64,000 bases of DNA from Candidatus Latescibacterota bacterium (GCA_965200315.1 OZ241362.1:2240001-2304000), one strand, 5' to 3'; counted from the stretch's first letter, positions 1 to 14,057 are shown. Notes: a model not told the origin generated them from the letters alone. Program-made: numbers and translations.

Positions 1-1
1 C

Positions 2-619
2 TTTGTTCATCACGCAGACCACGTCGCTGTACTGCTGGGCTTCCTGCATGTTGTGGGTAGTCATGACAATGGTGAGACCTTGGAGACGGTACTGGTTTAG
101 TACGTCCCAGAGTTGCCGACGCAAATGCGGATCTAAGTTGCTCGATGGCTCATCGAGGATCAGCAGCGCAGGTTTGCCTACTAAGGCAATGGCAATGAGC
201 AGCCTGCGCTTTTCTCCTCCCGACAGGTCTTTGTAGGCTATTTTCTGCTGACGCTGCAACTCAAAAACGTCTATTAACTCGTCAGGATCAATCGGGTTCC
301 GATACATTTTCGCATAAAGGCGTAATGCCTCTTTAACTCGAATATCATTATAGAGAGAATCTTCTTGAAATTGAATGCCGATTCTACTGCGTATGTCCTT
401 GCGCCGCTGCAGATCGGGGATTCTTTCACCAAACAAGTGGATGTCTCCAGAGTCAGGGTTTTTTAAGCCTACAATGCAATCTATAATAGACGTTTTACCC
501 GTTCCATTAGGTCCTACCAAACAAAAGACCTGTTGTGGATATACGGTAAAACTAACGTCTTCGACGGCGACGATCTTGCCGTAGCTTTTGTGCAAGTTAT
601 TTACCTGAATAATAGACAT
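2..619 (-). CDS. ABC transporter ATP-binding protein (3'-truncated by window edge), RiPP export
   Basis: Manual translation from ATG at 619: MSIIQVNNLHKSYGK...GPNGTGKTS (Walker A), LSGGEKRRL signature, LILDEP Walker B. Not in the ORF track because it runs off the window. Confidence 0.9.
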   Translation of the reverse strand, partial: MSIIQVNNLHKSYGKIVAVEDVSFTVYPQQVFCLVGPNGTGKTSIIDCIVGLKNPDSGDIHLFGERIPDLQRRKDIRSRIGIQFQEDSLYNDIRVKEALRLYAKMYRNPIDPDELIDVFELQRQQKIAYKDLSGGEKRRLLIAIALVGKPALLILDEPSSNLDPHLRRQLWDVLNQYRLQGLTIVMTTHNMQEAQQYSDVVCVMNK

Positions 620-666
620 TTGATCTCGGCTGGATTCAGTAGGAAATAAGCTATTCAAAGTTGCAG

Positions 667-1395
667 TCAGGATTTCCATTCAATCCGTATCTTAAAAACC
701 ATAATGTTGAAAACCTGATGGCACAATATGCACGGTAAAAGGCTGCCAGAGGTAAGATACATGATACTCAAAATTACACCAAGCAGGGTTTTAGAGATCG
801 CATTTGCCAAACCGTAAGCTATATGATTCATTCCAAATGCACAAGACGAGATGACAACAGCGTATTGTACAGGTATGTTTAGGACATCGGTTGCATAAGA
901 AATCAAGTGGCTTCTCCACAGAATCTCCTCTAGAAGAGCCTCGACAAGGATACAACCCAGTAACAGACTGATAGGTAATCTTTGTCCTTTCCTGACAATA
1001 CGTTTGGTCTCTCCAAACATCCATTGTTCTGCTATTGGCCTGCTTCCCATCCGCAGCTTTAACCACATCCGTGCTGCAACGATCTCTGAATAATAAAAGG
1101 CCACGCCGACACCGACACTTATTAAAATCGTAACGCCGAGCGATAAGGGCATTGGGAGGCCGAACCATACAGGCCATGCAAAGGCCGACTTCAGAATGTG
1201 GATAGCTGGGTCGCACAAGCTCAAAATTAAGAGTAGAGCACCCGTAAGAGATGCCAAAGGCATGACAAAGTCGCAGCGGTCCAAGGCTGCATCAATCGTT
1301 TTTTCGGATAGAATCCAACTACCTATCAGGTATAAACCTGAATGTATTGCATAAAAGAGGCCAGGATAGGCCAATAAAAAAACAAAACAAAACAT
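667..1395 (-). CDS. CPBP/CAAX (Abi-family, SagE-like) intramembrane metalloprotease
   Basis: Hydrophobic protein with EEILWR, FGMNH and HQVFN motifs; lies inside the RiPP operon. Confidence 0.85.
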   Translation of the reverse strand: MFCFVFLLAYPGLFYAIHSGLYLIGSWILSEKTIDAALDRCDFVMPLASLTGALLLILSLCDPAIHILKSAFAWPVWFGLPMPLSLGVTILISVGVGVAFYYSEIVAARMWLKLRMGSRPIAEQWMFGETKRIVRKGQRLPISLLLGCILVEALLEEILWRSHLISYATDVLNIPVQYAVVISSCAFGMNHIAYGLANAISKTLLGVILSIMYLTSGSLLPCILCHQVFNIMVFKIRIEWKS

Positions 1396-1410
1396 AGGTC
1401 AGACCTGAAG

Positions 1411-2874
1411 TTAGGGAAAAGGGACGGGCCCTGGCTTGAGCTCTTTGAATGTGAGTGGCTTATCCCTCAACCCCATTTTCATGGGTAATTCGTAAATCCG
1501 AGGGTGGCCCAAGTAGGGATGCGCACTGATATGGGGCTGTACTAATTCAGGAATGAATACTTTGACCACCTTTACCTGAGACATCTGTCCGTGGGTACAG
1601 TCAATGACGATGGGATCTATATTATATTGTTGAAGTATATCTTTGAGATATTCCAACTGTTCTTCTGAATGCTTGAGCTTTACCTTTGGTAATTCCGACA
1701 GAGCCACTGTATCATCACTGCGAAAAAAATCTTTCAGCCGTCCATTATGTTCAGTGTGTCCGTAGTATCCAATGGTTTCCAAAAACGTCCGCATTTCAGC
1801 TAGCGGTTTGTCCGGTGGAGCGTCGAATATTGTTTGGATACCTTTCATAAACTGCCGTTGAGGTGTCAACATAGCAGATTTTAATTGCAGTTCGGACTGC
1901 CCATATTCCAGCAAGGCTCGTACGAAAGCTTCTTCTCCATCCAATGCCGCTGCTGACCCAGCCTGATAGGCGAACTTTTTATAGTAGGGGACTAGCTGAG
2001 TCGCTGAGATACAGGGCAACTTAGGGAAACCTACGTCGTGTAACCAAAAATTCACATCACCAGATAGAGATCTGATATATTCCAAATCTCTGTTAGTTTT
2101 CTTGGAAGAGAGTGGTTTGTCAACTTCTACTCGACGCAGTGGAATATTTGCATACCAAGACAGCATCAAGGCATCGCGCTCGATAAGCTCTGTTACTCCA
2201 GCGATGATGGCCAAGGCTTCGTCTACATGAGAGGCCATACCAGAAGATGATGAATAGCCGATACGGGATTCCTCGATAGACGGGATGTATAAGAATAGCA
2301 CGAGCTGTATAGGAATCCAAATCTCTTCTTGGCTGATGAGCCTACGTCCCTTGATCCAATCGAGTTCAGAGTCATGAGTAAAAGGTTGAAAGAAGAAATC
2401 GGGAGTGGCGTATTGTTCATCTGCAAACAGAGGAAGTGCTTCCGGCATAATAGCATTCTGACCTGCTTGTTGCAGGGAGCTATAGGACCCGACATATCTC
2501 TCCAAATCCTCTTTCAAGAAAGCAAATGTCCCAGACATCCTTTCAACGCTTTCACCTAAGTCGGATAGAAATGAAGACGAGAGTTCAAAGCCTTTACCTC
2601 CCGCAATCATAGAAGAGTCCAATCTGAGATCTAGGGAAGGCAAACCGACGATCTGGCGCATGACTTGATCGGCATCCCAGTGCTTGCTATTGACAGCGAC
2701 GGTTTGGGAAATTCCAGCTCCACCATTGTAAACAGTCGAATATCGTATCGGGCCATTGGGGAAATACCACGAGAGCATTTCTCTGATTGCCCGACCTTCT
2801 TTCCCACTCATTACATTGGGTAAGGTCTCTTGATGAGGGTTGATGTAAGTGGAATGCAATTTCATAGAAGTCAT
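1411..2874 (-). CDS. YcaO cyclodehydratase (azoline-forming, D protein)
   Basis: SSSGMASH, ELIERDA, GESVER motifs and Pro-rich C-terminus (HPYLGHPR...PGPVPFP). Start moved to ATG 2874, which has a GGAGGT SD. Confidence 0.92.
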   Translation of the reverse strand: MTSMKLHSTYINPHQETLPNVMSGKEGRAIREMLSWYFPNGPIRYSTVYNGGAGISQTVAVNSKHWDADQVMRQIVGLPSLDLRLDSSMIAGGKGFELSSSFLSDLGESVERMSGTFAFLKEDLERYVGSYSSLQQAGQNAIMPEALPLFADEQYATPDFFFQPFTHDSELDWIKGRRLISQEEIWIPIQLVLFLYIPSIEESRIGYSSSSGMASHVDEALAIIAGVTELIERDALMLSWYANIPLRRVEVDKPLSSKKTNRDLEYIRSLSGDVNFWLHDVGFPKLPCISATQLVPYYKKFAYQAGSAAALDGEEAFVRALLEYGQSELQLKSAMLTPQRQFMKGIQTIFDAPPDKPLAEMRTFLETIGYYGHTEHNGRLKDFFRSDDTVALSELPKVKLKHSEEQLEYLKDILQQYNIDPIVIDCTHGQMSQVKVVKVFIPELVQPHISAHPYLGHPRIYELPMKMGLRDKPLTFKELKPGPVPFP

Positions 2875-2882
2875 GGTAAATA

Positions 2883-3656
2883 TTATACCTCCCATTTGAA
2901 TGTTCGAGTGGAGATCAAGTATGATAGTACGGTTATGACTATGAGAAACAGCAATGAATTTACATACTGAGATATAGGATCCCCGAGCCATACACCAGAA
3001 AAGGTCATAACCACATGAGTTAAAGGAGAACCCCAGCTTAAAGTCTGTAGCCAATCTGGAAACATTTGCCGCGGGAAGGTGGCTCCCGATATAAAAAACA
3101 TGATGAGAAATAAAAATTGGCTTAGAGCTTGGGTGCTTCTTGGAGATTTGGAAAGACTATTTACCAAGAAACCCAAAGCAAAAAAACAAGTCATACAGCT
3201 CAATCCCACAAACATGACAACCGCCCAGTGCCCACGGAAATGGAGGTCAAAAATGATCTCTGCGACCGCAATTAGGATCAAGGAAGAAACAATAAAAATA
3301 ATCGTTTGCATTGCGACATGGACGCAAAGGTAAAATCCAAGTGAGAGTGGACTGATGACATAGCGTTTGAGGATACCGAGCAGACGGTACTCAACCAAAA
3401 AATTGGTGAGGTTAGTCAGACCTGCTTGGCCGATATATGCAGCCATGAGTGCTGGAGCATAGAAATCAATGTAACGCACGTCGGGACGGTCCCACATCGG
3501 GGCTTCTCCAAACATAGAGCCGAACAGGAGAAAGAAAAAGATGGGCAATACAAATGTAAAGAAGGCAGCAGTAGGCTGACGCAGGAACAATTTGCACTCG
3601 ACGCTCCAGAGCGCGACGAAGCTCTGGAGCCAGATAGTTCTATTTGAAAAGGCCAT
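2883..3656 (-). CDS. ABC-2 type transporter permease
   Basis: Multiple TM segments, EYRLLGILKR and FISGATFP...PDWLQ...SPLTH pattern. Start at ATG 3656. Confidence 0.88.
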   Translation of the reverse strand: MAFSNRTIWLQSFVALWSVECKLFLRQPTAAFFTFVLPIFFFLLFGSMFGEAPMWDRPDVRYIDFYAPALMAAYIGQAGLTNLTNFLVEYRLLGILKRYVISPLSLGFYLCVHVAMQTIIFIVSSLILIAVAEIIFDLHFRGHWAVVMFVGLSCMTCFFALGFLVNSLSKSPRSTQALSQFLFLIMFFISGATFPRQMFPDWLQTLSWGSPLTHVVMTFSGVWLGDPISQYVNSLLFLIVITVLSYLISTRTFKWEV

Positions 3657-3669
3657 CTTATGCGAACCT

Positions 3670-4650
3670 TCAACTGTCTCTATCGGTGACTTTTCGGAGA
3701 CGTGACTCTTTATCCACTTTATCTCCAAAGGCAACTACTAGGGTTGTAAATTCTCTTCGTCCATCCAACCCCAAAAAGGAGTCTGTGAGCTCATCGTCGA
3801 AGCCAAATACCATACATGATCCTAACTCAAGTGCCGTAGCGACAAGGTGCAAATTCTGGCTTACGACGCCAGTTTCAAGATGGGCCAATCGGTACGATTT
3901 ATAGGCACCGTACTTCCATGTAAGCCGCGATATATCAGGGGCGATAAAAATGACTACACTTGCCTCAGCTAACCATTTGTGAGAGTAACAACAGTTGACC
4001 ACACGCCAGCGAAAATTCCCCCTCTCAAGCAGCTCTAGGCAGCTTTGCTTAGAATTGTAATGATATAACCCTTGCGGAGTGTCTTCGACCTCGTTGATCA
4101 CGAGATAAAATTCGGTGCATTGCAGCCCGCCAGCAGTCGGAAAATTGCGTAGCGTAACATCGCGACGATTATATGCTAATATAGTATCCCGTACACCGCA
4201 GGCCTGCCCTAATAGCGTACTCAGTCTTTCGATCGATAGAGCTGATCGCTTAAAGTCCCGGGCCGAGGTTCTATTATTGATTACATCCGAAACAGATTCA
4301 GTGATAAGTGGAAACTCTGCCTCTAATTGGATGTTTTTTGCACCAATGAATTCTTTGTGTAAGTCCGGTGCTATTTTTTCGTTTACTCTTAGAAAGGATA
4401 GCCATTCGTCTTCCGTTGGATAGTCTTTTAATCCGTTTACCACGATAGCCAACTCGTCCATAGGTCCATTAACTGACCTGTCTCGTTTGGTACGCTTTAG
4501 AAGATCATATAAAACTTGCTGCTCCTGAGACTCCAATTCTTCCAACTCTTGAAGCAGCTTTGGCTCTAGGGTAGTCGTCGGCTCTGAATGAGGCAACGAA
4601 TCTGGTATCTCTACCGCAGTGGACTTTCTCTCTCTAATTGCCATTGTCAT
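3670..4650 (-). CDS. SagB/ThcOx-family FMN-dependent azoline dehydrogenase
   Basis: RTSARDF, RNFPTAGGL, GLYHY, WKYGAYKSYRLAHLETG, QNLHL motifs. ATGA overlap with the upstream gene. Confidence 0.9.
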   Translation of the reverse strand: MTMAIRERKSTAVEIPDSLPHSEPTTTLEPKLLQELEELESQEQQVLYDLLKRTKRDRSVNGPMDELAIVVNGLKDYPTEDEWLSFLRVNEKIAPDLHKEFIGAKNIQLEAEFPLITESVSDVINNRTSARDFKRSALSIERLSTLLGQACGVRDTILAYNRRDVTLRNFPTAGGLQCTEFYLVINEVEDTPQGLYHYNSKQSCLELLERGNFRWRVVNCCYSHKWLAEASVVIFIAPDISRLTWKYGAYKSYRLAHLETGVVSQNLHLVATALELGSCMVFGFDDELTDSFLGLDGRREFTTLVVAFGDKVDKESRLRKVTDRDS

Positions 4651-5450
4651 CTATCCGCGTTGATGGGTGAGAAGGTAAGGAGAGCGTAAACGGACCGCTC
4701 TACACCGTCGGCTTGCACGAATTCGTCTACTTTCGTGTCGAGAAAATCTTGGTGGACGGTCGCAGAGTATCTATAGAATTCGTACTGATATTGAAAGTAC
4801 CCCAGCAATCGTCCTATATCAAGCAAGGTATGGCGGTAGCCCCTGGGGCCGTAGATGAGCATGTATCGCCAAGGACAGGCGACGACGATCAACATAGTCG
4901 AACACTCTTCAATGCTTATAGGCGGTGATTTCCAGAACAGGTCGGGCAAAAATGTGGCTTCATTTTTCACTTCACGCTCAATCCAGAGATAGTCTAATTC
5001 TGGAACGATGCGGAAGAGCATTTCGTTGTGTAGCAAGAGCAGATCGATAGCATAGAGTAGATTGGCTAGGTATCCCGGTTTGGCAAAGAGATTCAGTGGG
5101 TCTTGAAGCCAACTAGGGAGTTGGTCACAGGGGATTCTTAATCCAGGGGCATTATCAACTATGGCCTCTTCTTCAACGCGATAGGCGGTTTCAAAAAACC
5201 ATCGGCGCACCTGTTCAAGGATTGAGGTATCAAGGGGAATCTGAAGGGTCGAGTGAGGATTCAGCTTCGAGTTTTCATGGTACAATTCGGCCACATGTGG
5301 CTTCGGTCTGACTTGGCGGTAAAGGTAATCCGAAGCAGCCGAGTGGCTCAGGTCAATGCTGTGAGGAGAAGGTATAGGCGGCGATTCCAAAGACATTTGA
5401 ATGCGCTTTAAGAAGGAGTCCGGATCAGTAAGAGGAGATTCGACAGTCAT
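4647..5450 (-). CDS. Second, divergent nitroreductase/SagB-like protein
   Basis: AELYHENSKL at the N-terminus and WRYMLIYGPRGYRHTLLDIG near the C-terminus resemble SagB-type folds; lacks the RxSxR and PSAGG motifs. Confidence 0.6.
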   Translation of the reverse strand: MTVESPLTDPDSFLKRIQMSLESPPIPSPHSIDLSHSAASDYLYRQVRPKPHVAELYHENSKLNPHSTLQIPLDTSILEQVRRWFFETAYRVEEEAIVDNAPGLRIPCDQLPSWLQDPLNLFAKPGYLANLLYAIDLLLLHNEMLFRIVPELDYLWIEREVKNEATFLPDLFWKSPPISIEECSTMLIVVACPWRYMLIYGPRGYRHTLLDIGRLLGYFQYQYEFYRYSATVHQDFLDTKVDEFVQADGVERSVYALLTFSPINADR

Positions 5451-5529
5451 TTTGCACTCCGTTCGGTAATATTATACCAGATTGACGAGCTGTACTTTTC
5501 ATAGTCAGTCTTCACGTTTGCTAAGAGAC

Positions 5530-6639
5530 CTAGAGAAACATGTTTCTGTACCCGTTCCGCATACCAACAGATACAGGGGATCTAGGTAATTTCAGGATTT
5601 CTTCGTAATCGACATAGGGCTTTTCAAAATTGATGCGAAAGCATCGACCTATCAAAGAAGATTTTCCAGACAAAAGGAAAGACGAGGCGGCACCTGCCAC
5701 AAAGCCGGCAGCTATGCTAGCGTAGGGCGGAAACGCAAATTGATGGCTGTAAAGGCCATTCTTACTCATTTCCTCCTTATAGGTATAGTACTCGCTGTGC
5801 TTGACGGACAAAGTAGCTTCCGATTGGATTTCAAACTCGTTGTAGCAGCACGTTTCTCCAGGCACATAAATAGGGCCGATGCAGGCTTCACTGCCGTCCA
5901 TAAATGCGGATATCCACGGCTTTTCGGCGGAAAGTGCTGAGAGATCTACGGTGTGAAAGAGATGGGAAGAGAATACTTCGGAGGTTGCGACGACAAAGTT
6001 TGAAGCGCCAAATAGGCTTTCTAAGGCATCTTGATTATGATAGGATTCTTTGATCGCCTTGAGACGATCATAACCGAGATCTAACAGATGCAATTCCAAG
6101 GACTCGACGTAAGATCGCCCCTTCTCGATATAAGTCGAGGAACGATTAAACTGAGCCTGATCAACCGTAGCATTTTCGATGTGTCGGTCGTCCAAGATTT
6201 GCATCTGGCCGACCCCGATTTTTGCGAATTCTTCCGCCACGCGGCTACCGAGATAACCGGCACCTACGATGCCAATGCAGATGTTATCGAGGTCTTGGTT
6301 GCCACCTACGATAGCATTCAAATAGCTTACGATAGGACTTTCATTGGCTGGAGAGATAAACCCTTGGGAGGTCAGAGTTGAGATTAGTTCTTCCGCATCT
6401 TCGAGCTCTCCTTCCCCAATCACTTTTTGCTCTTGGAGATCTTGCAGAGAAGCTGGTGACGCCAAACGACGGAGTACTCGTCCTAGAAGATGAGTTCTGC
6501 CTTCATCTCTGATCGTCTGGTTGAATTTGGACCTCACGCCGTGTAATACTAAAATTTCATCTTCGCCGCAAAAGATGAACTTGAGTGAGGGATTGAGCAC
6601 GAAGCGGCAATTGGTAATGAATTCGGTTTTGATTTCCAT
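5530..6639 (-). CDS. TOMM leader-peptide-binding / ThiF(E1)-like cyclodehydratase partner (C protein)
   Basis: N-terminal RRE-like winged region, IGIVGAGYLGSRVA Rossmann motif, IGPIYVPGETCCYNEF, C-terminal LKLPRSPV. Confidence 0.82.
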   Translation of the reverse strand: MEIKTEFITNCRFVLNPSLKFIFCGEDEILVLHGVRSKFNQTIRDEGRTHLLGRVLRRLASPASLQDLQEQKVIGEGELEDAEELISTLTSQGFISPANESPIVSYLNAIVGGNQDLDNICIGIVGAGYLGSRVAEEFAKIGVGQMQILDDRHIENATVDQAQFNRSSTYIEKGRSYVESLELHLLDLGYDRLKAIKESYHNQDALESLFGASNFVVATSEVFSSHLFHTVDLSALSAEKPWISAFMDGSEACIGPIYVPGETCCYNEFEIQSEATLSVKHSEYYTYKEEMSKNGLYSHQFAFPPYASIAAGFVAGAASSFLLSGKSSLIGRCFRINFEKPYVDYEEILKLPRSPVSVGMRNGYRNMFL

Positions 6640-6746
6640 AGATATCTACTCTTCTAATTGTTATAAGTTAGCCAAAAACAGTTAATCGCGATTCCCGATC
6701 AGCAGACCTAATAGAAACTAGGGCATTTATATCAAGAGGTTAAGTG

Positions 6747-6784
6747 CCTGCCTGTAGTAATCAACATAGATAACTACAGGCAGG
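6747..6784. terminator. Hairpin between precursor genes and modification genes
   Basis: CCTGCCTGTAGT (6747-6758) is the exact reverse complement of ACTACAGGCAGG (6773-6784); only a weak U-tract follows. Confidence 0.6.
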
Positions 6785-6844
6785 ACAATACTAAATACCG
6801 TTTGAGATCAAAGTAGCCTCAGCCATAAAAACAATAAACGGCAC

Positions 6845-6958
6845 TTACAGGCAAATAGGGCTAGGGCAATGACAGTGGCAGCAGGTGCAGCAGGAGGCCC
6901 TGATAAACGCTGGCGACATATAGCCATCAAAGGACTTCGATACGACTTTGAGCTTCAT
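6845..6958 (-). CDS. RiPP precursor peptide A2 (37 aa): MKLKVVSKSFDGYMSPAFIRASCCTCCHCHCPSPICL
   Basis: Manual translation; AAGGAGG SD; leader identical to A1 at 16 of the first 17 residues. Below the ORF-track size cutoff. Confidence 0.9.
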   Translation of the reverse strand: MKLKVVSKSFDGYMSPAFIRASCCTCCHCHCPSPICL

Positions 6959-7001
6959 CTTGATTTCCTCCTTTGAGCGGGCTCAATTACAAAATAGACT
7001 A

Positions 7002-7112
7002 CTAAAATGAGATTGTGATGGTACAGTGACAGTGGCAGCAGCAGCAGGGTGCGGCGAGCTTCGCTGGCGACATATAGCCATCAAACGAGTTCGATACGAC
7101 TTTGAGTTTCAT
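7002..7112 (-). CDS. RiPP precursor peptide A1 (36 aa): MKLKVVSNSFDGYMSPAKLAAPCCCCHCHCTITISF
   Basis: C-terminal part of ORF 7002..7277; AAGGAGG SD before ATG 7112; Cys/Thr/Ser-rich core upstream of YcaO machinery. Confidence 0.9.
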   Translation of the reverse strand: MKLKVVSNSFDGYMSPAKLAAPCCCCHCHCTITISF

Positions 7113-7213
7113 CTTGCTTTCCTCCTTGGCTTGATTAGCCATTTGTTTGTAGCCGGTTGAGATGCGACACAGCAGCAATGGGAGCAACAGCCGGCCGTCC
7201 TGTGTGCTTCCAT
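7109..7213 (-). CDS. Putative Cys-rich upstream small ORF (34 aa): MEAHRTAGCCSHCCCVASQPATNKWLIKPRRKAR
   Basis: Manual translation; its TGA overlaps the A1 ATG (ATGA); no clear SD. Confidence 0.35.
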   Translation of the reverse strand: MEAHRTAGCCSHCCCVASQPATNKWLIKPRRKAR

Positions 7214-7265
7214 GTCTTAAAATACTGCTGATTTTGAAACACGGCTGAGGCTCAGCGCGAATAAA

Positions 7266-7281
7266 TGCGAAAAACATGCCA
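7266..7281 (-). promoter_or_regulatory. sigma54 (-24/-12) promoter for the RiPP operon
   Basis: Minus strand reads TGGCATG-TTTT-TCGCA versus consensus TGGCACG-N4-TTGCW, with correct GG-N10-GC spacing and orientation. Confidence 0.55.
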
Positions 7282-7485
7282 AAGAGTACACCAAATAAAA
7301 TGAACTGTCGTTGGCCTTCGCTAACCCCTTGTAATTAGACAAGTTAGCCAAGCCAAATTATTTGCGGCTACACCTCCGCCCCGACTGGGCAATGCACTTA
7401 GGTGTATCGCCTACGCAACAATACTGTTTCCCAAGCAAGACAAAAAAGTAGCTTCGCCACCGCTTCTGCCTGCACCCGCATCTGA

Positions 7486-7676: not shown

Positions 7677-9509
7677 ATGGAAGCAATGGCCAAGACTCTG
7701 ACCAACGGCCGCGCCAACGGCAAGGCCACGTACGACGAAAGCAAGATCAAAACTCTCTCTTCGCTCGAACACATCCGCCTGCGGACCGGCATGTACATCG
7801 GCCGCCTCGGCTCGGGTGCCGATCCCGACGACGGAATCTACATATTGCTCAAAGAGGTCGTTGACAATGCAGTCGATGAGTTCATCATGGGCTGTGGCAA
7901 GCAGATCGACGTCACAATCGACGACGGTCGCGTCTCGGTGCGCGACTACGGCCGCGGCATTCCCCTCGGCAAGGTTGTCGATTGCGTCTCGGTCATCAAT
8001 ACCGGGGCCAAATACAACGACGACGTCTTCCAGTTCAGCGTGGGGCTTAACGGCGTCGGCACCAAGGCCGTCAACGCGCTTTCGGCCCACTTCGTTGTCC
8101 GCTCCTACCGCGATGGGCGATGCGCCGAAGTGCTCTTTGAGCGTGGCGAGCTAAAAAAGCAAAAGAAGAGCCGAGCGTACAATACGCCCGACGGCACGTA
8201 CGTCGAGTTTCTGCCCGATCCGAACATCTTTGGCGAATGCGCCTTCAACCACGAGTTCGTCGAGCGCCGGATGTGGAACTACGCCTGCCTCAACCGGGGC
8301 CTGCGCCTGTACTTCAACCGCCAAAAATTCGAGTCCAAACAGGGCCTGCTCGGCCTCCTCAAAAGCGAAGCCGGCGATTCGGTTCTTTACCTGCCCGCTT
8401 ACTACAAGGGCCAGTACCTCGAATTTGCCTTCACCCACGTCGATAGCTACGGCGAGTCCTACCGCTCCTTTGTCAATGGCCAGTACACAGCCGACGGCGG
8501 CACCCACCAGAGTGCGTTCCGCGAGGGTGTGCTCAAGGGCGTCAACGAATTTTACAAGAAAACCTTCAACGGCGTCGATGTGCGCGACGGGGCCTTTGGC
8601 GTCGTCGCCGTCAAGGTCAAGGAGCCGGTTTTTGAGTCGCAGACCAAAAACAAGCTGGGCAATACCGACGTCCGCGGCTGGATCGTCAACGAGACCCGCG
8701 AAGCCATCGTCGATTTCTTGCACAAGAATCGGGAGACCGCACAAAAGCTCGAAGCGCGCATCGTCCACAACGAAAAGCTGCGCAAGGAGCTGAACGCGGT
8801 TAAAAAGGAAGCCAAGGAGGCGGCACGCCGCATTGAGATCAAAATCCCCCAGCTCAAGGACTGCAAGTACCACAAAGGCGACAAGAAGCGCGGCGAGGAG
8901 TCCATGATTTTCATCGCCGAGGGGCAGTCGGCCGCTGGCTCGATCGTCTCCTCGCGCGATCCCGAGACCCAAGCCATCTTCACCCTCAGAGGCATGCCGC
9001 AAAACCTCTATGGCAAAACCCGCGCCTCCATCTACAAAAATGAAGAACTCTACAATATGATGATGGCCCTCGGGATCGAAGAAGACATCGGCAACCTGCG
9101 CTACAACCAAGTCGTCATGGCTACCGACGCGGATATTGACGGCTTCCACATCCGCAATATCCTGATGACCTTCTTCCTCACCTATTTCGAAGAGCTAGTC
9201 ACCTCGGGGCACATCTATATCCTCGAAACCCCGCTCTTCCGGGTGCGCAACAAACAACAGACCTACTACTGCTATGATGAGCGCGATCGCCAACGCGCCG
9301 AAAAAAAGCTCAAAGGTACCGCGGAAGTCACCCGCTTCAAGGGCCTTGGCGAGATTTCCCCCAAGGAGTTTGGACAGTTTATCAACGGCGACATGCGACT
9401 GGTCAAAGTCGGCGTCCGCTCGCTGGCCACTGTCCCCGAGACCCTCTCCTTCTATATGGGCAAGAACACCCCCAACCGCCGCGACTACATTATGGAGCAT
9501 CTTGTCTAA
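7677..9509 (+). CDS. parE: Type IIA topoisomerase subunit B (topo IV ParE-like)
   Basis: HIRLRTGMYIG, EVVDNAVDE, GLNGVG (GHKL ATPase), AEGQSA and TDADIDG (Toprim), RFKGLGE. Confidence 0.9.
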   Translation: MEAMAKTLTNGRANGKATYDESKIKTLSSLEHIRLRTGMYIGRLGSGADPDDGIYILLKEVVDNAVDEFIMGCGKQIDVTIDDGRVSVRDYGRGIPLGKVVDCVSVINTGAKYNDDVFQFSVGLNGVGTKAVNALSAHFVVRSYRDGRCAEVLFERGELKKQKKSRAYNTPDGTYVEFLPDPNIFGECAFNHEFVERRMWNYACLNRGLRLYFNRQKFESKQGLLGLLKSEAGDSVLYLPAYYKGQYLEFAFTHVDSYGESYRSFVNGQYTADGGTHQSAFREGVLKGVNEFYKKTFNGVDVRDGAFGVVAVKVKEPVFESQTKNKLGNTDVRGWIVNETREAIVDFLHKNRETAQKLEARIVHNEKLRKELNAVKKEAKEAARRIEIKIPQLKDCKYHKGDKKRGEESMIFIAEGQSAAGSIVSSRDPETQAIFTLRGMPQNLYGKTRASIYKNEELYNMMMALGIEEDIGNLRYNQVVMATDADIDGFHIRNILMTFFLTYFEELVTSGHIYILETPLFRVRNKQQTYYCYDERDRQRAEKKLKGTAEVTRFKGLGEISPKEFGQFINGDMRLVKVGVRSLATVPETLSFYMGKNTPNRRDYIMEHLV

Positions 9510-11398
9510 TGGCCTATATCGACAGTCTGTACAACAACTACTTCCTCGAATACGCCTCCTACTCCATCAGGGACCGTGCAATTCCGCACATTGACGACGG
9601 GCTCAAACCCGTCCAACGCCGCATCCTCCACGCGCTACACAAGATCGACGACGGCAAGTTCCACAAGGTCGCCAACGTAGTAGGACAGACCATGCAGTAC
9701 CACCCGCACGGCGACCAGTCTATCTACGGCGCGCTCGTGGTGTTAGCCAACAAGGACCTCTTCATCGAAAAACAGGGCAACTTCGGCAACATCTACACTG
9801 GGGACGAAGCTGCCGCCGCCCGCTATATCGAGTGCCGGCTCACGCCACTGGCCAAACAGGTGCTTTTCAACAAGGCACTGACCGACTACATCGACTCCTA
9901 CGACGGTCGCAATCAGGAGCCGGTGGTTTTCCCCGCCAAGGTCCCGGTGCTGCTGGCCCAAGGTGCCGAAGGCATTGCCGTCGGCATGGCGACCAAGATA
10001 TTGCCGCACAATCTCATCGAACTGTTAGAAGCCCAAATCGCCTATTTGCAAGACCGCCCCTTCCAGCTCTATCCTGATTTTCCCACCGGCGGCCTAGCTG
10101 ATTTTTCCGCTTACAACGACGGCAACGGCAAAGTCTTAGTCCGCGCCCGGCTCGACACCGCCGACCCCAAGCGCATCGTCATCCGCGATCTCCCCTTCGG
10201 CACCACCACCGAACAACTTATCACCTCCATTGAAGACGCCGCGCGCAAAAACAAAATCAAGATCGGCACCATCTCCGACTACACGGCCGAAAACGTCGAG
10301 ATCGAAATCAAACTGCCGCGCGGCACGTACACCGAGGCGGTGGTGGATGCGCTTTACGCCTTCACCGATTGCGAGCTGTCGATTTCAGCCAACCTGATGC
10401 TGATCAACGAGCACAATCGCCCGCAAGTCATGAGTGCCACTGAAGTCTTGCAACACAACGTCGATCGCCTCGTCGATATCCTCAAGGCCGAGCTCCAGCT
10501 CGAAGCCGATCAACTCAACGACAAGCTCCACGCCAAGACCTTGGAACATATCTTTATCGAAAACCGCATCTATAAAACCATTGAGGAGCAGACCACCACG
10601 GCCGAAGTAGCCTTGGCCGTGCGCACCGGGCTTTGGCCTTTTGCCCCGCAGCTCAAACGCGATATTACCAACGACGATATCGAGACCCTGCTCAAGATCC
10701 CGATCCGCCGCATCTCGCGCTATGACATCAATCGCGCTGAAAAAGAGATGAAGGAAATCCGCACTCGACTGCGCCAGATCAAGAAGCATTTGGCTGGCAT
10801 TATCCCCTACACCATCACCTTTATCCAAGATCTCATTGACTGCTACCGCAGCCAGTTTCCGCGCCGCACTGAAATCGTGGAAATCGAAAGAGTCGATGCG
10901 CGCTCGGCTGCCAACCGCAACCTCAAGCTACGCTATGACAAAAAGACCGGCTATCTCGGCCACCAAATCAGCGGCGCCACCCTCTGCGACGTATCGCTCT
11001 ACGACTCTGTGCTCGCCATCCGCAAGGACGGCACCTACTCGGTCGAGCATGCGCCGGATAAGCTCTTCGTCGGCAAGGGCTTGCTCCACTGCGGTTTGAT
11101 GGACAAGGACCTAACTTTCAGCATCGTCTATAAGGACAAAGCCGGTGCCTCCTACATCAAACGCTGTACCATCGACAAGTTCATCTTAGGCCGCAGCTAC
11201 GATCTCGTGCCCGCCGAGTGCAAGGTGCTCAAGTTGACCACCGACTCCGACAAAAAGATCGCCCTCGCCTACAAGCCCAAGCCGCGCCTACGCAAGCTCA
11301 ACGAGGTATTCCTCATCAGCGAATATCCCGTGCGCGGGCTACGCGCCGGTGGCATTCGCCTGAGCACCAAGGAACTGGCCGGGTGTAAGCTGCTGTAA
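9509..11398 (+). CDS. parC: Type IIA topoisomerase subunit A (topo IV ParC-like)
   Basis: [22 protein letters not shown] catalytic Tyr, GIAVGMAT; short CTD without a GyrA-box. Confidence 0.88.
11345..11398 (+). repeat. parC 3' end, left copy of diverged 54-nt direct repeat
   Basis: Encodes [17 protein letters not shown]; matches 14149-14202 at 41/54 nt. Confidence 0.85.
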
Positions 11399-11514: not shown

Positions 11515-12301
11515 ATGTCTAATCCTAAAACAGTGGAACAACTACAGGAACATGCTGCTATCTATTGGCCATCTGAAATAGCGCATCAAGAGAAGAGTTC
11601 TAGTATTATTCCGCTGCTCCTTAAAACGCAAGATTGTTTTATAAGCGTACTTCATCTTGCATAGCTTAGGGCTTGACGGAAAAGGACTCCAGAGACGCTT
11701 TGACCTTACAGATGCCATTAGAGATGTGAGTACCCTGCTCTTATTTGGCGGTTTGTCAACCAATGACTTTTTGCCAGAAGAAATCACAGAAAAATGTATT
11801 ATTGGCTCAATGCTTGGCGACAAACCGAGGCTGGAAAAGTACATTAAAGAAAGATATATCTGGGTCAGTCGAATTACTGGAGGAGCAACATCCAACAGGA
11901 TGGGTCACCTCGCTCAAAGTTATGTAAAAGAGCGGTTGGCCAAATATCTCCCAGATTGGGACTTCTCACAAACCACAATCCCAGGTGTTAGCCAGAACGA
12001 GGGCAGAACAAATACAAAGTTTGACATCGTTGGCAAAGGTCCTAATGGTAACTATTGGGGCATTGAAGTGAGCTTCCAGTTTACGACCAACAGCGTAGTA
12101 GAACGAAAAGCTAAACTCGCCCTCGATAGACAAAGGATTCTTCAGGAAAAGGGACATAAAATTGCGTATGTAGTTGATGGTGCTGGTAACTTTGAGCGTC
12201 GATCTGCTGTGCAGGACTTGATCTACTACAGCGATTGTATTATCAATTTTAGCGATGGTGATATTATGCGTCTTGCATGCACTATGAAAGGAGACAACTA
12301 A
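11515..12301 (+). pseudogene. BanI/HgiCI-like type II restriction endonuclease, disrupted by internal deletion and frameshift
   Basis: 5' fragment 11515-11664 (MSNPKTVEQLQEHAAIYWP...IIPLLLKTQDCFISVLHLA*) and 3' fragment in another frame (ERYIWVSRITGG, IEVSFQFTTNSVVERKA, YVVDGAGNF) resemble the N- and C-terminal parts of R.BanI as I recall it; the middle is missing. Confidence 0.7.
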
Positions 12302-12302
12302 A

Positions 12303-14057
12303 ATGGCTCACCGGAGTGAAAACTGCAAACCTTTAGATATATCCACAAAGACATTTGAAGGCTTTCAAGAATTAAAGTCAACGCCACTACGCCCGAATGT
12401 ATGGCTCTTTCACTTGATAACAGAAGTTGATTTTGACGATGAATGCTCGATGGAAATTCCCACGCAAAAATTGTCCGGTTTCCTCGAAGAACTACCTGAC
12501 GAAAGCACCGTTTGTTTTTTGGCAAATTCTCGTATCGCATGCCATGTAATAGAAGCATTTCAGAACCTCGTTCACTTCAAACTTTGGATAGCTGTCAAGC
12601 GAAAAAAAGAGATCCTGAGATCAGGTGCTATACCAGATGATCATATTGCCCTTTTGGTTTTTACCTGTTACAAAGGCTCCCTAAAGCACAATAGGACTCA
12701 AATTGCATACACCTATTGTCCGGCTTGCGAAAAAACGACCAAAGACTACGGTGGCAAGAAGCATATTTATAGCCCCTACGGCACCCTTATGTCCGATATT
12801 TGGCGCGACATCTCTTACGACAACGAAACAGAGCCTATCGCCATTCTAGAAAGACTAAGTGATCTCTTTGGTCTCGCACCACATCGCCAACTCATCTACT
12901 GCGACGTCAGGAAATTTTTTAAGCTCTCTAAAAAGACAGCACTTCGCCCGGAAAACGGAAGGCTCAACGATCCCGGCGAGAGCCGCCTTCTCAACGGAGA
13001 TTGTTTAGATATTCTCAGAACCATTCCCGAAAATTCCGTAGATTTTATCTTTGCCGATCCGCCGTATAATATAAAAAAGAAATACGATAACTGGAATGAC
13101 TCCCAAGACATCAGCGACTATTTTTTATGGTGCGATCAATGGATCGCCGAATCCGCTAGGATTTTGAAGCCTGGTCGGACTTTTGCAATCATAAATATTC
13201 CCCTTTGGGTCGTCAGGCATTTTTCGTTCGCGAAAAGTATTTTAGACTACCAAGATTGGATCGCTTGGGAGGGATTGAGCTTGCCCGTCAGGCAAATTAT
13301 GCCCGCCCATTACGGAATAATTTGCCTCAGTAAAGGTCGGCCCATTGAAATTGCTAATCACGAGCAAGACGCATGTTGGGAAACGCGCCAAGACTTTATG
13401 AGCCTCAAACAATGGTATTGCGTTAGGACCTCTTGCATTAAAAAGAGAAATGCGACTCAAATTACTGATCGACAGCCTCTTGGGAACTTATGGTGGGACA
13501 TACATAGGCTAAAGCACAATTCAAAAAGAGTGGATCACCCCTGCCAACTACCTCCATCACTGATGAAGCGACTCATCCACACCTTTACCAAAGAAGGGGA
13601 CCTTGTTTTAGACCCTTTTAACGGCGCGGGTACAACGACCTTAACCGCAGAGATACTTTGCAGAAAATTCATCGGCATTGAACTATCGGCCCAATATCAC
13701 GCCATGGCCGAGCAAAGACATCTGGACCTAAAACAAGGAGAGGACCCATTTGCTAAAAACAAGGCTACTCCAAGTGTCAAAAACAGCAGGGTCTCACGAC
13801 TGCAAAAAAGGAAATACGAAGTACCCAAGAAAACACTACAAATCGAAGTTAAAGAGCTTGCGATCAAACTGGGGCGCAGGCCCGACAGAGAAGATGTCAT
13901 CCAGTTTAGCAAATATCCAATTCGCTATTTCGACGAATACTTCATCGACTGGGGTGAGGTGTGTAGTGCGGTCGGCGACAAGGGAATGACTGAAGATTCT
14001 TCTCGCTCGTTCCGCCCTGTGCCCGAGGATCGGCAAATGGAACTTTTTTTTAGCTAG
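12303..14057 (+). CDS. Beta-class N4-C/N6-A DNA methyltransferase with N- and C-terminal extensions
   Basis: FADPPY (motif IV) precedes LDPFNGAGTT (motif I); HPCQLP; N-terminal region with CPAC; C-terminal helical module. Confidence 0.88.
   Translation: MAHRSENCKPLDISTKTFEGFQELKSTPLRPNVWLFHLITEVDFDDECSMEIPTQKLSGFLEELPDESTVCFLANSRIACHVIEAFQNLVHFKLWIAVKRKKEILRSGAIPDDHIALLVFTCYKGSLKHNRTQIAYTYCPACEKTTKDYGGKKHIYSPYGTLMSDIWRDISYDNETEPIAILERLSDLFGLAPHRQLIYCDVRKFFKLSKKTALRPENGRLNDPGESRLLNGDCLDILRTIPENSVDFIFADPPYNIKKKYDNWNDSQDISDYFLWCDQWIAESARILKPGRTFAIINIPLWVVRHFSFAKSILDYQDWIAWEGLSLPVRQIMPAHYGIICLSKGRPIEIANHEQDACWETRQDFMSLKQWYCVRTSCIKKRNATQITDRQPLGNLWWDIHRLKHNSKRVDHPCQLPPSLMKRLIHTFTKEGDLVLDPFNGAGTTTLTAEILCRKFIGIELSAQYHAMAEQRHLDLKQGEDPFAKNKATPSVKNSRVSRLQKRKYEVPKKTLQIEVKELAIKLGRRPDREDVIQFSKYPIRYFDEYFIDWGEVCSAVGDKGMTEDSSRSFRPVPEDRQMELFFS

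Follow-up and report, generated by a model that had tools for sequence, protein, structure and literature searches.

A putative linear azole peptide operon with a family of Cys-rich precursors in a Candidatus Latescibacterota bacterium

The window, as the whole stretch of DNA analyzed here is called, comprises 64,000 nucleotides (nt) from a Candidatus Latescibacterota bacterium (G000:C1:2240001-2304000) and opens with a minus-strand gene cluster that very probably directs the biosynthesis of a linear azole peptide (LAP), a product of the thiazole/oxazole-modified microcin (TOMM) type. Coordinates are window positions unless prefixed. The cluster is real. The listing of open reading frames (ORF) and the Pfam and NCBIfam profile searches, on which the gene calls are based, returned every gene that the original prediction for this DNA had named (two precursors, a ThiF/RRE partner, two SagB-like proteins, a permease, a YcaO protein, a protease and an ATPase), each at its place on the minus strand. 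A YcaO cyclodehydratase, an E1-like C protein, a SagB dehydrogenase and adjacent leader-bearing, Cys-rich precursors are all present, and the profile matches bear out the earlier claim of an azole-containing peptide that is ribosomally made and modified after translation (a RiPP), with a streptolysin S-type gene content. The gene order is far beyond chance; all 18 of the 18 long related loci repeat it.

Gene content and biosynthetic enzymes

The operon starts with precursor A (7002..7112, 36 amino acids, aa) and precursor B (6845..6958, 37 aa), both preceded by AAGGAGG-type ribosome sites placed 7-8 nt 5' of the ATG. The genes that follow on the minus strand encode the C protein, with an RRE (RiPP recognition element) and an E1/ThiF-like part (5530..6639, 369 aa; PF00899, E 5e-12), a second SagB-like protein, hereafter B' (SagB-like 2; 4647..5450, 267 aa), which has a degenerate nitroreductase fold and no Pfam match, and the SagB-type dehydrogenase dependent on flavin mononucleotide (FMN) (3670..4650, 326 aa; PF00881, E 5e-21). 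Then come an ABC-2 permease (2883..3734; an ORF of 283 aa with the likely ATG at 3656 and relatives that align from residue 14-23 onward; PF01061, E 4e-21), the YcaO cyclodehydratase or D protein (1411..2883, 490 aa; PF02624, E 6e-52), a CPBP/CAAX intramembrane protease (667..1395, 242 aa; PF02517, E 2e-16) and an ABC ATPase, of which the window holds the N-terminal 226 aa (1..679; PF00005, E 2e-29).

The original prediction had called this cluster complete, which needs correcting: the window start falls inside the ATPase gene, and the operon extends about 5.3 kb beyond it. The whole ATPase (G000:C1:2238991-2240679) has 562 aa, of which residues 335-561 are TPR-like. A TonB-dependent barrel of 745 aa (G000:C1:2236748-2238985) begins 5 nt after the ATPase in the same direction, and a secreted TPR protein of 260 aa (G000:C1:2235945-2236727) lies 20 nt further on. 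The barrel and the TPR protein are counted as cluster members because they are kept in the loci of the genus and in a genome from another family (G085). They are not inseparable from the cluster, since one member of the genus (G007) retains them without the LAP genes.

The genes overlap or are at most 20 nt apart, except that 79 nt separate the gene of the C protein from that of B'; the stop of the B' gene overlaps the SagB start by 4 nt. Two longer frames were considered and set aside. A YcaO ORF of 547 aa is over-long, and the gene is placed at 490 aa because relatives align only from residue 57/58 of the longer frame. A weak YcaO match in genus g2 (G029, E 6e-8) was rejected as well; it covers residues 1-60 of that over-long ORF, where it overlaps the permease gene. 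Similarly, a 91-aa ORF at 7002-7277 is an over-extended version of precursor A.

The YcaO protein scores 221.7 bits with TIGR03604 (cut-off 219.25), ends in KPGPVPFP, that is, in a PxPxPxP motif, and has LynD, TruD and MusD as its closest solved relatives. It is the only copy found in the genome, and the best plasmid-borne YcaO among 72,556 plasmid records is 27% identical (E 1e-29).

The AlphaFold2 model of the C protein, computed from a 14-row alignment (mean pLDDT 78.6), contains an N-terminal domain of three strands and helices followed by an E1 fold. In a Foldseek search this model aligned over about 350 columns, the N-terminal domain included, to MccB (E 1.2e-17), PaaA and TruD/LynD, all of which have an RRE-plus-E1 architecture. 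The model thus points to a leader-binding domain of the RRE type joined to an E1-like domain, and places the protein with these relatives.

SagB is recognized by TIGR03605 at 141 bits (cut-off 78.4) and also matches the solved structures of CyaGox, BmdC and McbC. Its R127/R131 and its W-K-Y-G stretch at 245-248 are invariant in 17 sequences; the latter holds the Lys-Tyr motif that we take to serve in FMN-dependent dehydrogenases of this type. B', on the other hand, reaches 24 bits with the same profile (residues 180-260), under the cut-off, and lacks the RxSxR and GGLQ signatures of SagB. It has conserved motifs of its own, namely AELYHENSK, CPWRYMLLYGPRGYRHTLLD and ADGVERS. In the 511-aa tandem protein 3eo7, SagB matches residues 331-497 in the C-terminal half and B' residues 156-237 in the N-terminal half, so that the two proteins look like a split two-domain dehydrogenase. 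Complex prediction agrees with such a pairing. SagB, FMN and B' gave ipSAE values of 0.74, 0.79 and 0.75 and three controls 0.00; the partner has a pLDDT of at least 67, at least 42% of the contacts are common to the runs, and the interface lies on the central helices. Calibration of the mark used put 58 of 80 solved complexes at or above it, along with 2 of 110 mismatched pairs. The predicted heterodimer may nevertheless express likeness to a dimer and is not proof of binding, because nitroreductase dimers are well represented among solved structures.

The translation of the intramembrane protease contains EExxxR, FxxxH and HxxxN, which we take to be the defining CPBP motifs, and the protein is a candidate leader peptidase, a candidate immunity protein or both. 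The permease is DrrB-like, which assigns the pump to the DrrAB/ABC-2 exporter type.

Precursor peptides and conserved RNA elements

In the 19 loci with precursors, 32 precursor genes were found, one to three per locus. All 32 peptides share a leader of 17 residues with the consensus MKL[KR][IV]VS..F.GYMSPA, in which M1, K2, L3, S7, F10, P16 and A17 are invariant in the 27 aligned sequences. F10 is always present, with M or I four residues on. This spacing resembles the FXXXB motif of SagA and McbA, as given in the available part of the source (PMC2676033). Next to the leader comes a linker that varies from 0 to 25 residues and is often either acidic and Ser-rich or poly-Gly, then a Cys run and a short hydrophobic or Gly-rich tail; the boundary between leader and core is provisional.

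Behind the near-invariant leader the cores are hypervariable, and the number and spacing of Cys residues vary freely. At least five consecutive Cys residues occur in 19 of the 32 cores, with a maximum of nine, mostly followed by a short hydrophobic tail. The cores of the window read CCCCHCHC in precursor A, which has a hydrophobic tail, and CCTCCHCHC in precursor B, with heterocyclizable runs of four and six residues, respectively, before a His. A few relatives reach 10-11 contiguous heterocyclizable residues, such as the SS or TSS followed by eight Cys in L030 and L033. The G085 precursor carries the same leader before the core CCSHCSHCSNC. The original prediction had also proposed that alternating thiazole and His residues could give a metal-binding peptide. 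The distribution of His speaks against this as a trait of the family: 11 of the 32 cores contain it, from 7 of the 19 loci and with those of the window among them, and the common feature is the Cys run. The conserved barrel and the secreted TPR protein, discussed below, do speak for it.

The precursors are unfamiliar, as had been claimed. No Pfam or NCBIfam family matched them in the profile searches. A precursor profile, built on a 48-aa first row, found 10 matches among 5.8 billion proteins, all unnamed or 'hypothetical'. Among 1.84 billion representatives there were 13 matches with E <= 0.001; seven had E <= 1e-10 and the eighth 3.3e-10, and the five weakest align over 9-14 positions of the profile, within proteins that are long or repeat-like. 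In the article main texts searched, neither of the leader strings GYMSPA and IVSKPF occurs.

The precursors are framed by two conserved elements. The 5' region ahead of precursor A (7113..7290, minus strand) holds a sigma-54-like motif, a palindrome and the ribosome site; its roughly 170 nt have a mean column identity of 86% in 19 sequences, which exceeds that of nearby coding DNA, and the DNA further upstream is poorly conserved. The motif at 7266-7281, TGGCA(C/T)G-N4-T(C/A)GC with invariant GG and GC, occurs once in the window against 0.07 expected. It corresponds to what we take to be the -24/-12 consensus of sigma-54, and rpoN is present in the genome. A 13-nt palindrome (about 7244-7256) lies just downstream, at the predicted start. 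A sigma-70-like site occurs at 7536-7507, and contigs from RNA libraries, which extend to 7439 and 7488, reach 160-230 nt further upstream. The sigma-54-like motif is a candidate start and may not be the sole one, because these contigs extend beyond it. In a search for a riboswitch or other known RNA in the 5' region, Rfam gave no match beyond a chance microRNA match on the hairpin, and RNAalifold found compensatory change in 0 of 39 pairs; an RNA structure is possible there.

The second element is a hairpin (6745..6787, minus strand) between the precursors and the enzyme genes. Its region has a minimum free energy of -42.5 kcal/mol for 116 nt (z = -6.1), and no U-run follows the stem. All 15 of the 15 loci retain the stem, CCUGCC(C/U)GUAG...CUAC(G/A)GGCAGG, in which 2 of 13 pairs show compensatory change. 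It is proposed as an element of transcript ending, processing or attenuation. Two RNA-library contigs end near it, at 6779 and 6800, which gives a weak hint in this direction.

In each of two metatranscriptome libraries, the precursor unit stands on a separate contig (6800-7488 and 6779-7439), and one RNA-library contig of 6.3 kb runs from YcaO to past the window start. Both libraries come from one study, which is possibly also the source of this DNA. Since the records are contigs and not reads, the thin or absent cover in run X7 (4801-5600) and the low, fragmented cover at 3500-6800 are not read as low expression. Run X20, with two short pieces of 95-99% likeness in the topoisomerase genes only, is uninformative on the cluster.

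Distribution, fixed slot and apparent exchange of the cassette

Runs labelled as sponge metagenomes contain the stretch, and the best of them may be the source of this DNA; the host bacterium is probably sponge-associated. Of 24 genomes sampled from the same genus, 17 yielded YcaO. For B', 168 genomes across the phylum were surveyed. Within the genus it turned up in 20 of the 30 other genomes. Outside the genus a single genome was positive, 1 of 15 from one genus of another family, and the remaining 47 genera gave no match; several of the negative genomes are fragmented or incomplete.

In the 18 long related loci the cluster occupies a fixed slot. The order runs ParC-ParE, then precursors-C-B'-B-permease-YcaO-CPBP-ATPase-barrel-TPR, then DEAD helicase-GluRS. 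Relative to the proteins of the window, the flanks are 91-96% identical and the cluster proteins 67-88%, so that the cluster differs 2-5 times more. The cluster is a low-GC cassette (45% against about 59%); in every species its GC content is 42-48%, against 55-63% in the flanks, and the GC content at third codon positions (GC3) is 0.44-0.53 in the cassette against 0.77-0.79 in core genes, with intermediate values for the barrel (0.63) and the TPR protein (0.56). The low GC3 of the cassette persists although the slot is identical in every species examined.

Distance matrices computed for C, YcaO, SagB, B' and CPBP match one another (Spearman 0.58-0.86) but not those of ParE, ParC and the DEAD helicase (-0.32 to 0.0), with the ATPase, barrel and TPR protein in between; since the genomes are related, these correlations serve as description only. 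Because the cluster distances agree mutually and not with the flanks, they suggest that the cassette has been exchanged among species by recombination at the slot. G007 has a different low-GC island of 8.4 kb at this place (L049 7100-15700, on G007:C2). It encodes a glycosyltransferase/transglutaminase-like protein of 893 aa, a GT2-TPR protein of 856 aa, a C39 peptidase fragment, a CPBP protein and a Yip1 protein, and it ends inside the 3' end of the ATPase gene; the last 57 ATPase codons, the barrel and the TPR protein are retained. In G085, the genes from C through the secreted TPR protein are kept at 45-64% identity (56-64% for the barrel and TPR protein), and the ParE/ParC and DEAD flanks are absent within 18 kb. 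An extra CPBP-like membrane protein of 216 aa, with EEMLYR and H-containing motifs, stands just upstream of the G085 precursor (L125 4975-5625). As a separate observation, the YcaO match covers only 79% in one frame in L043 (9001-10158) and 67% in L046 (9001-9978), where a frameshift or an assembly error is possible.

It could be asked whether the cluster is for the most part silent or in decay, carried along as cargo by a variable low-GC island and yielding no functional product in this genome. The GC3 gap to the core genes, the replaceable slot seen in G007 and the split YcaO match in 2 of 18 loci would agree with that reading. Nevertheless, all ten cluster genes in the window are intact, as they are in most relatives; the leader, the ribosome sites, the 5' region and the hairpin are under visible constraint; and the cluster is present in RNA libraries. 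Silent cargo is therefore considered very improbable, and a functional LAP operon is retained.

The cassette is not confined to this lineage. A B' profile search of environmental contigs found 72 related loci, and in about 30 of the 39 loci of at least 4 kb B' stands beside SagB; the split C-D-B'-B arrangement is thus found elsewhere, with enzymes 25-42% identical in the distant cassettes. Candidate precursors, picked by eye from small ORFs, are located there at L055 2357-2554, L058 736-960, L063 1698-1907 and L112 4506-4658, with Cys/His/Trp-rich ends reading VVAPGGW-CCHCHCTI, WCCCCGCNCWCN, CCCCCWCHCH and CCCCSCCCC. The VVAPGGW before two of these cores is reminiscent of what we take to be the SagA cleavage site. 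In L112, a TPR domain is fused N-terminally to the ABC ATPase. No description of a split E1-YcaO-B'-B cassette was found in the literature consulted, which was available in part.

The neighbors of the cluster were also inspected. The ParE-like (610 aa) and ParC-like (629 aa) genes at 7677-11398 (plus strand) are the only second type IIA topoisomerase of the genome, which has two type IIA A subunits in all, a GyrA-sized one elsewhere and the ParC beside the cluster; the ParC-like subunit is short relative to the 850-aa ORF of the GyrA-type copy. The pair was considered as a self-resistance device against a gyrase poison of the microcin B17 kind and rejected, with a host-like GC content and 91-96% identity across species. 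Beside ParC, a restriction-modification pair (11657-14057, plus strand, GC 43-44%) comprises a BanI-type endonuclease of 214 aa, which is N-terminally short (profile positions 126-331 of 338 only), and an N6/N4 DNA methylase of 584 aa. This pair is also present in G007 (84% and 80% identity) and in part in L030, L031 and L043.

Proposed mechanism, role of the product and relation to known systems

A mechanism can be proposed from these gene functions. One to three small precursors would be translated in excess, set off from the enzyme genes by the conserved hairpin. The E1-like C protein would capture the leader with its RRE domain, and YcaO would cyclize the Cys run to thiazolines with ATP. 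Subsequently, the heterodimer of SagB and its degenerate SagB-like partner would oxidize the thiazolines to thiazoles, giving contiguous polythiazoles that in the peptides of the window would be interrupted by His. The CPBP protease would then cut off the leader, protect the producer or do both, and the ABC-2 pump with its TPR-bearing ATPase would export the product across the inner membrane. Finally, the TonB-dependent barrel and the secreted TPR paralogue of the ATPase tail would handle the product in the periplasm or outer membrane. Taken as a whole, with this mechanism, the explanation is regarded as somewhat probable.

The product is tentatively assigned the role of a secreted, antagonistic, membrane-active peptide, similar to a bacteriocin or cytolysin, an assignment that falls slightly short of being probable. 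This role is favored because the gene kit is that of the cytolysins, the cores are poly-Cys with hydrophobic tails and hypervariable, and the cassette is shuffled and replaceable. The evolutionary pattern fits an antagonism locus.

Several points weigh against the LAP explanation and the antagonistic role. The cyclization of Cys residues, and the number of rings formed, are predictions from the genes. The C protein scores 48 bits with TIGR03603 (cut-off 187.65), and the permease 21.9 bits with the SagH equivalog (cut-off 450). The cores of the window offer 4-6 contiguous heterocyclizable residues and those of the cytolysins 10 or more. No dedicated immunity gene was identified in the cluster beyond the CPBP protease and the pump. 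The retention of the barrel with the cluster across families is not expected of a simple bacteriocin, and the recurrent alternations of Cys with His or Asn, together with the barrel, fit a metal carrier. The distance correlations are, as said, descriptive. Finally, the RNA-library contigs prove neither transcription nor transcript ends nor strand, since DNA may have been carried over and cover extends to the flanks.

The barrel consists of an N-terminal CarboxypepD_reg domain and a barrel domain, and it matches the Plug profile weakly (E 0.0063; 17.4 bits, under the cut-off of 23.9). The N-terminus of the secreted TPR protein is signal-peptide-like, and an Atlas look-up of this protein returned generic 'TPR protein' clusters only. 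The TPR-like tail of the ATPase is 43% identical to it over 230 residues, which makes the two paralogues.

The first alternative is a metallophore, in which thiazole nitrogens and His or Asn residues (or residual thiols) would chelate Cu, Zn or Ni, the ABC pump would export the peptide, the barrel would recapture its metal-loaded form and the secreted TPR protein would receive it, in the manner of methanobactin and MbnT. The tight spacing and common direction of ATPase, barrel and TPR genes speak for it, as does the fact that the latter two stay with the cluster in G085 without the flanking genes and in 18 of 18 loci of the genus. Furthermore, the barrel is absent (at E <= 1e-50) from 4 of the 5 tested genus members that lack YcaO. 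Alternations of Cys with His or Asn occur in the window, in G085, in L055 and in L063, and those with His recur where the cluster enzymes are only 35-64% identical. A secreted homologue of the TPR protein is encoded in distant L055. On the other hand, L055 and L112 have no barrel in the available DNA around them, and G007, the fifth of the tested members, keeps the barrel and TPR protein without LAP genes. His is confined to about a third of the cores; in sister species the cores are purely poly-Cys and end in hydrophobic or poly-Gly tails, an odd freedom for a chelator, and conserved chelating residues, as expected of one, are not seen where the number and spacing of Cys are free. No inner-membrane importer, reductase or metal-responsive regulator is seen in the operon, and the pump is of the exporter type. 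The barrel distances track those of the biosynthetic genes weakly (rho 0.15-0.41). No article joining linear azole peptides, TonB-dependent receptors and metallophores was found among the texts searched. A metallophore is a possible but doubtful role. The fuller version, a thiazole/His metallophore that would be the first on LAP (YcaO/SagB) chemistry, with its own TonB partner and paired TPR domains, encoded by a low-GC cassette swapped among species of sponge symbionts, is judged slightly more doubtful.

The second alternative leaves the product antagonistic and makes the barrel its outer-membrane exporter, with the TPR protein as a periplasmic chaperone. In a producer of the Gram-negative type the peptide must have a way across the outer membrane, and the operon contains no TolC-like gene. 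The CarboxypepD_reg domain and the weak Plug match are in agreement with this role, and the paralogy of the ATPase tail and the secreted TPR protein suggests that one and the same ligand is dealt with on either side of the inner membrane. The export of the protease PopC via Oar in Myxococcus gives a precedent, as described in the available part of the source (PMC6434023). However, export through such barrels is rare and import the rule, and the low Plug score may reflect simple divergence. An exporter barrel is thus considered improbable, and an antagonistic LAP product, with the barrel in a handling role, is kept as the preferred reading.

The closest known systems are those of the streptolysin S type (sagA-I; also clostridiolysin S, listeriolysin S and the Borrelia cluster). 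The gene set of the cytolysin family, as laid out in the available part of Cox et al. 2015 (PMC4603692), comprises discrete C and D proteins, a B protein, a CaaX-like protease and an ABC transporter, and the same set, with SagB as the B protein, is found here. Also shared, from the available part of another source (PMC2676033), are short precursors, sometimes encoded by two genes, with a Cys run after the leader and an F-x-x-x-hydrophobic motif within it. In contrast to streptolysin S, the leader sequence here is unrelated, and the cores of the window are short, interrupted by His and devoid of the long C-terminal half rich in Ser, Thr and Gly. An extra SagB-like partner is present, one permease replaces SagH/SagI and SagF is missing, whereas an ATPase-TPR fusion, a barrel and a secreted TPR protein are added in a producer of the Gram-negative type. 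The Gly followed by 10 or more heterocyclizable residues, which Cox et al. 2015 give for the family, is not found in the cores of the window. The same definition calls for D proteins that group with SagD at a BLAST E < 1e-54 and for a cytolytic (haemolytic) product. The system appears to work like a streptolysin S-type LAP and is provisionally not filed as a member, on account of the length of the core run, the C and permease scores and the low identity of the best plasmid-borne YcaO.

The faecalisins, an uncharacterized TOMM group of Enterococcus faecalis for which cores with a Gly linker and Cys repeats have already been noted (PMC4603692, in the available part), are likened to the present family by description. 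Several relatives look alike, for instance GGGGGGGG-CCCCC, and both systems have discrete C/D proteins and ABC transporters. The D protein of the faecalisins is, however, said in the same part of that source to be nearest to that of microcin B17, and the host phylum and the accessory genes differ.

The two-domain SagB oxidases (3eo7 from Anabaena and ThcOx/CyaGox) have the domain order that the gene order B'-B reproduces here, with the halves in separate genes that overlap by 4 nt instead of one chain. The likeness to plantazolicin (pzn) lies in contiguous azoles in a small linear peptide and in a gene set with C, D, B, a CAAX-type protease and an ABC transporter. The plantazolicin system differs by a methyltransferase and mixed Cys/Ser/Thr cores, and is not known to have a barrel, TPR proteins or a second SagB-like protein. 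Methanobactin, a RiPP chalkophore with Cys-derived heterocycles encoded beside the TonB-dependent MbnT, is alike by function only. Its oxazolone/thioamide groups are made by MbnBC and not by YcaO/SagB, and its MbnE-type binding protein and importer have no counterpart in the present cluster.

Metagenome-assembled genomes of sponge-associated Latescibacterota, which agree in phylum and in habitat label, have antiSMASH regions of the type 'LAP'; the available part of the source (PMC12993501) names the type only, with no precursors, gene list or product, and the cluster described here may be among these regions. For Latescibacterota, an uncultured group, no characterized natural product was found in the literature searched, which was available in part. 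What is new here is the family of precursors, the occurrence of a split SagB pair in such a cluster, the fusion of ATPase and TPR-like domain together with a paralogue that is secreted, and the presence of a TonB-dependent barrel.

The precursors form a natural library of poly-Cys cores behind one leader, which would be convenient for the production of contiguous polythiazoles in a heterologous host. The cluster is likewise a system for testing the function of the split SagB pair and for asking what keeps a barrel and paired TPR domains together with a RiPP. As a metal carrier, if it is one, the product would represent a new chemical class of metallophore. If it is similar to a cytolysin or bacteriocin, the cluster would bear on the competition among sponge symbionts or on the defense of their host.

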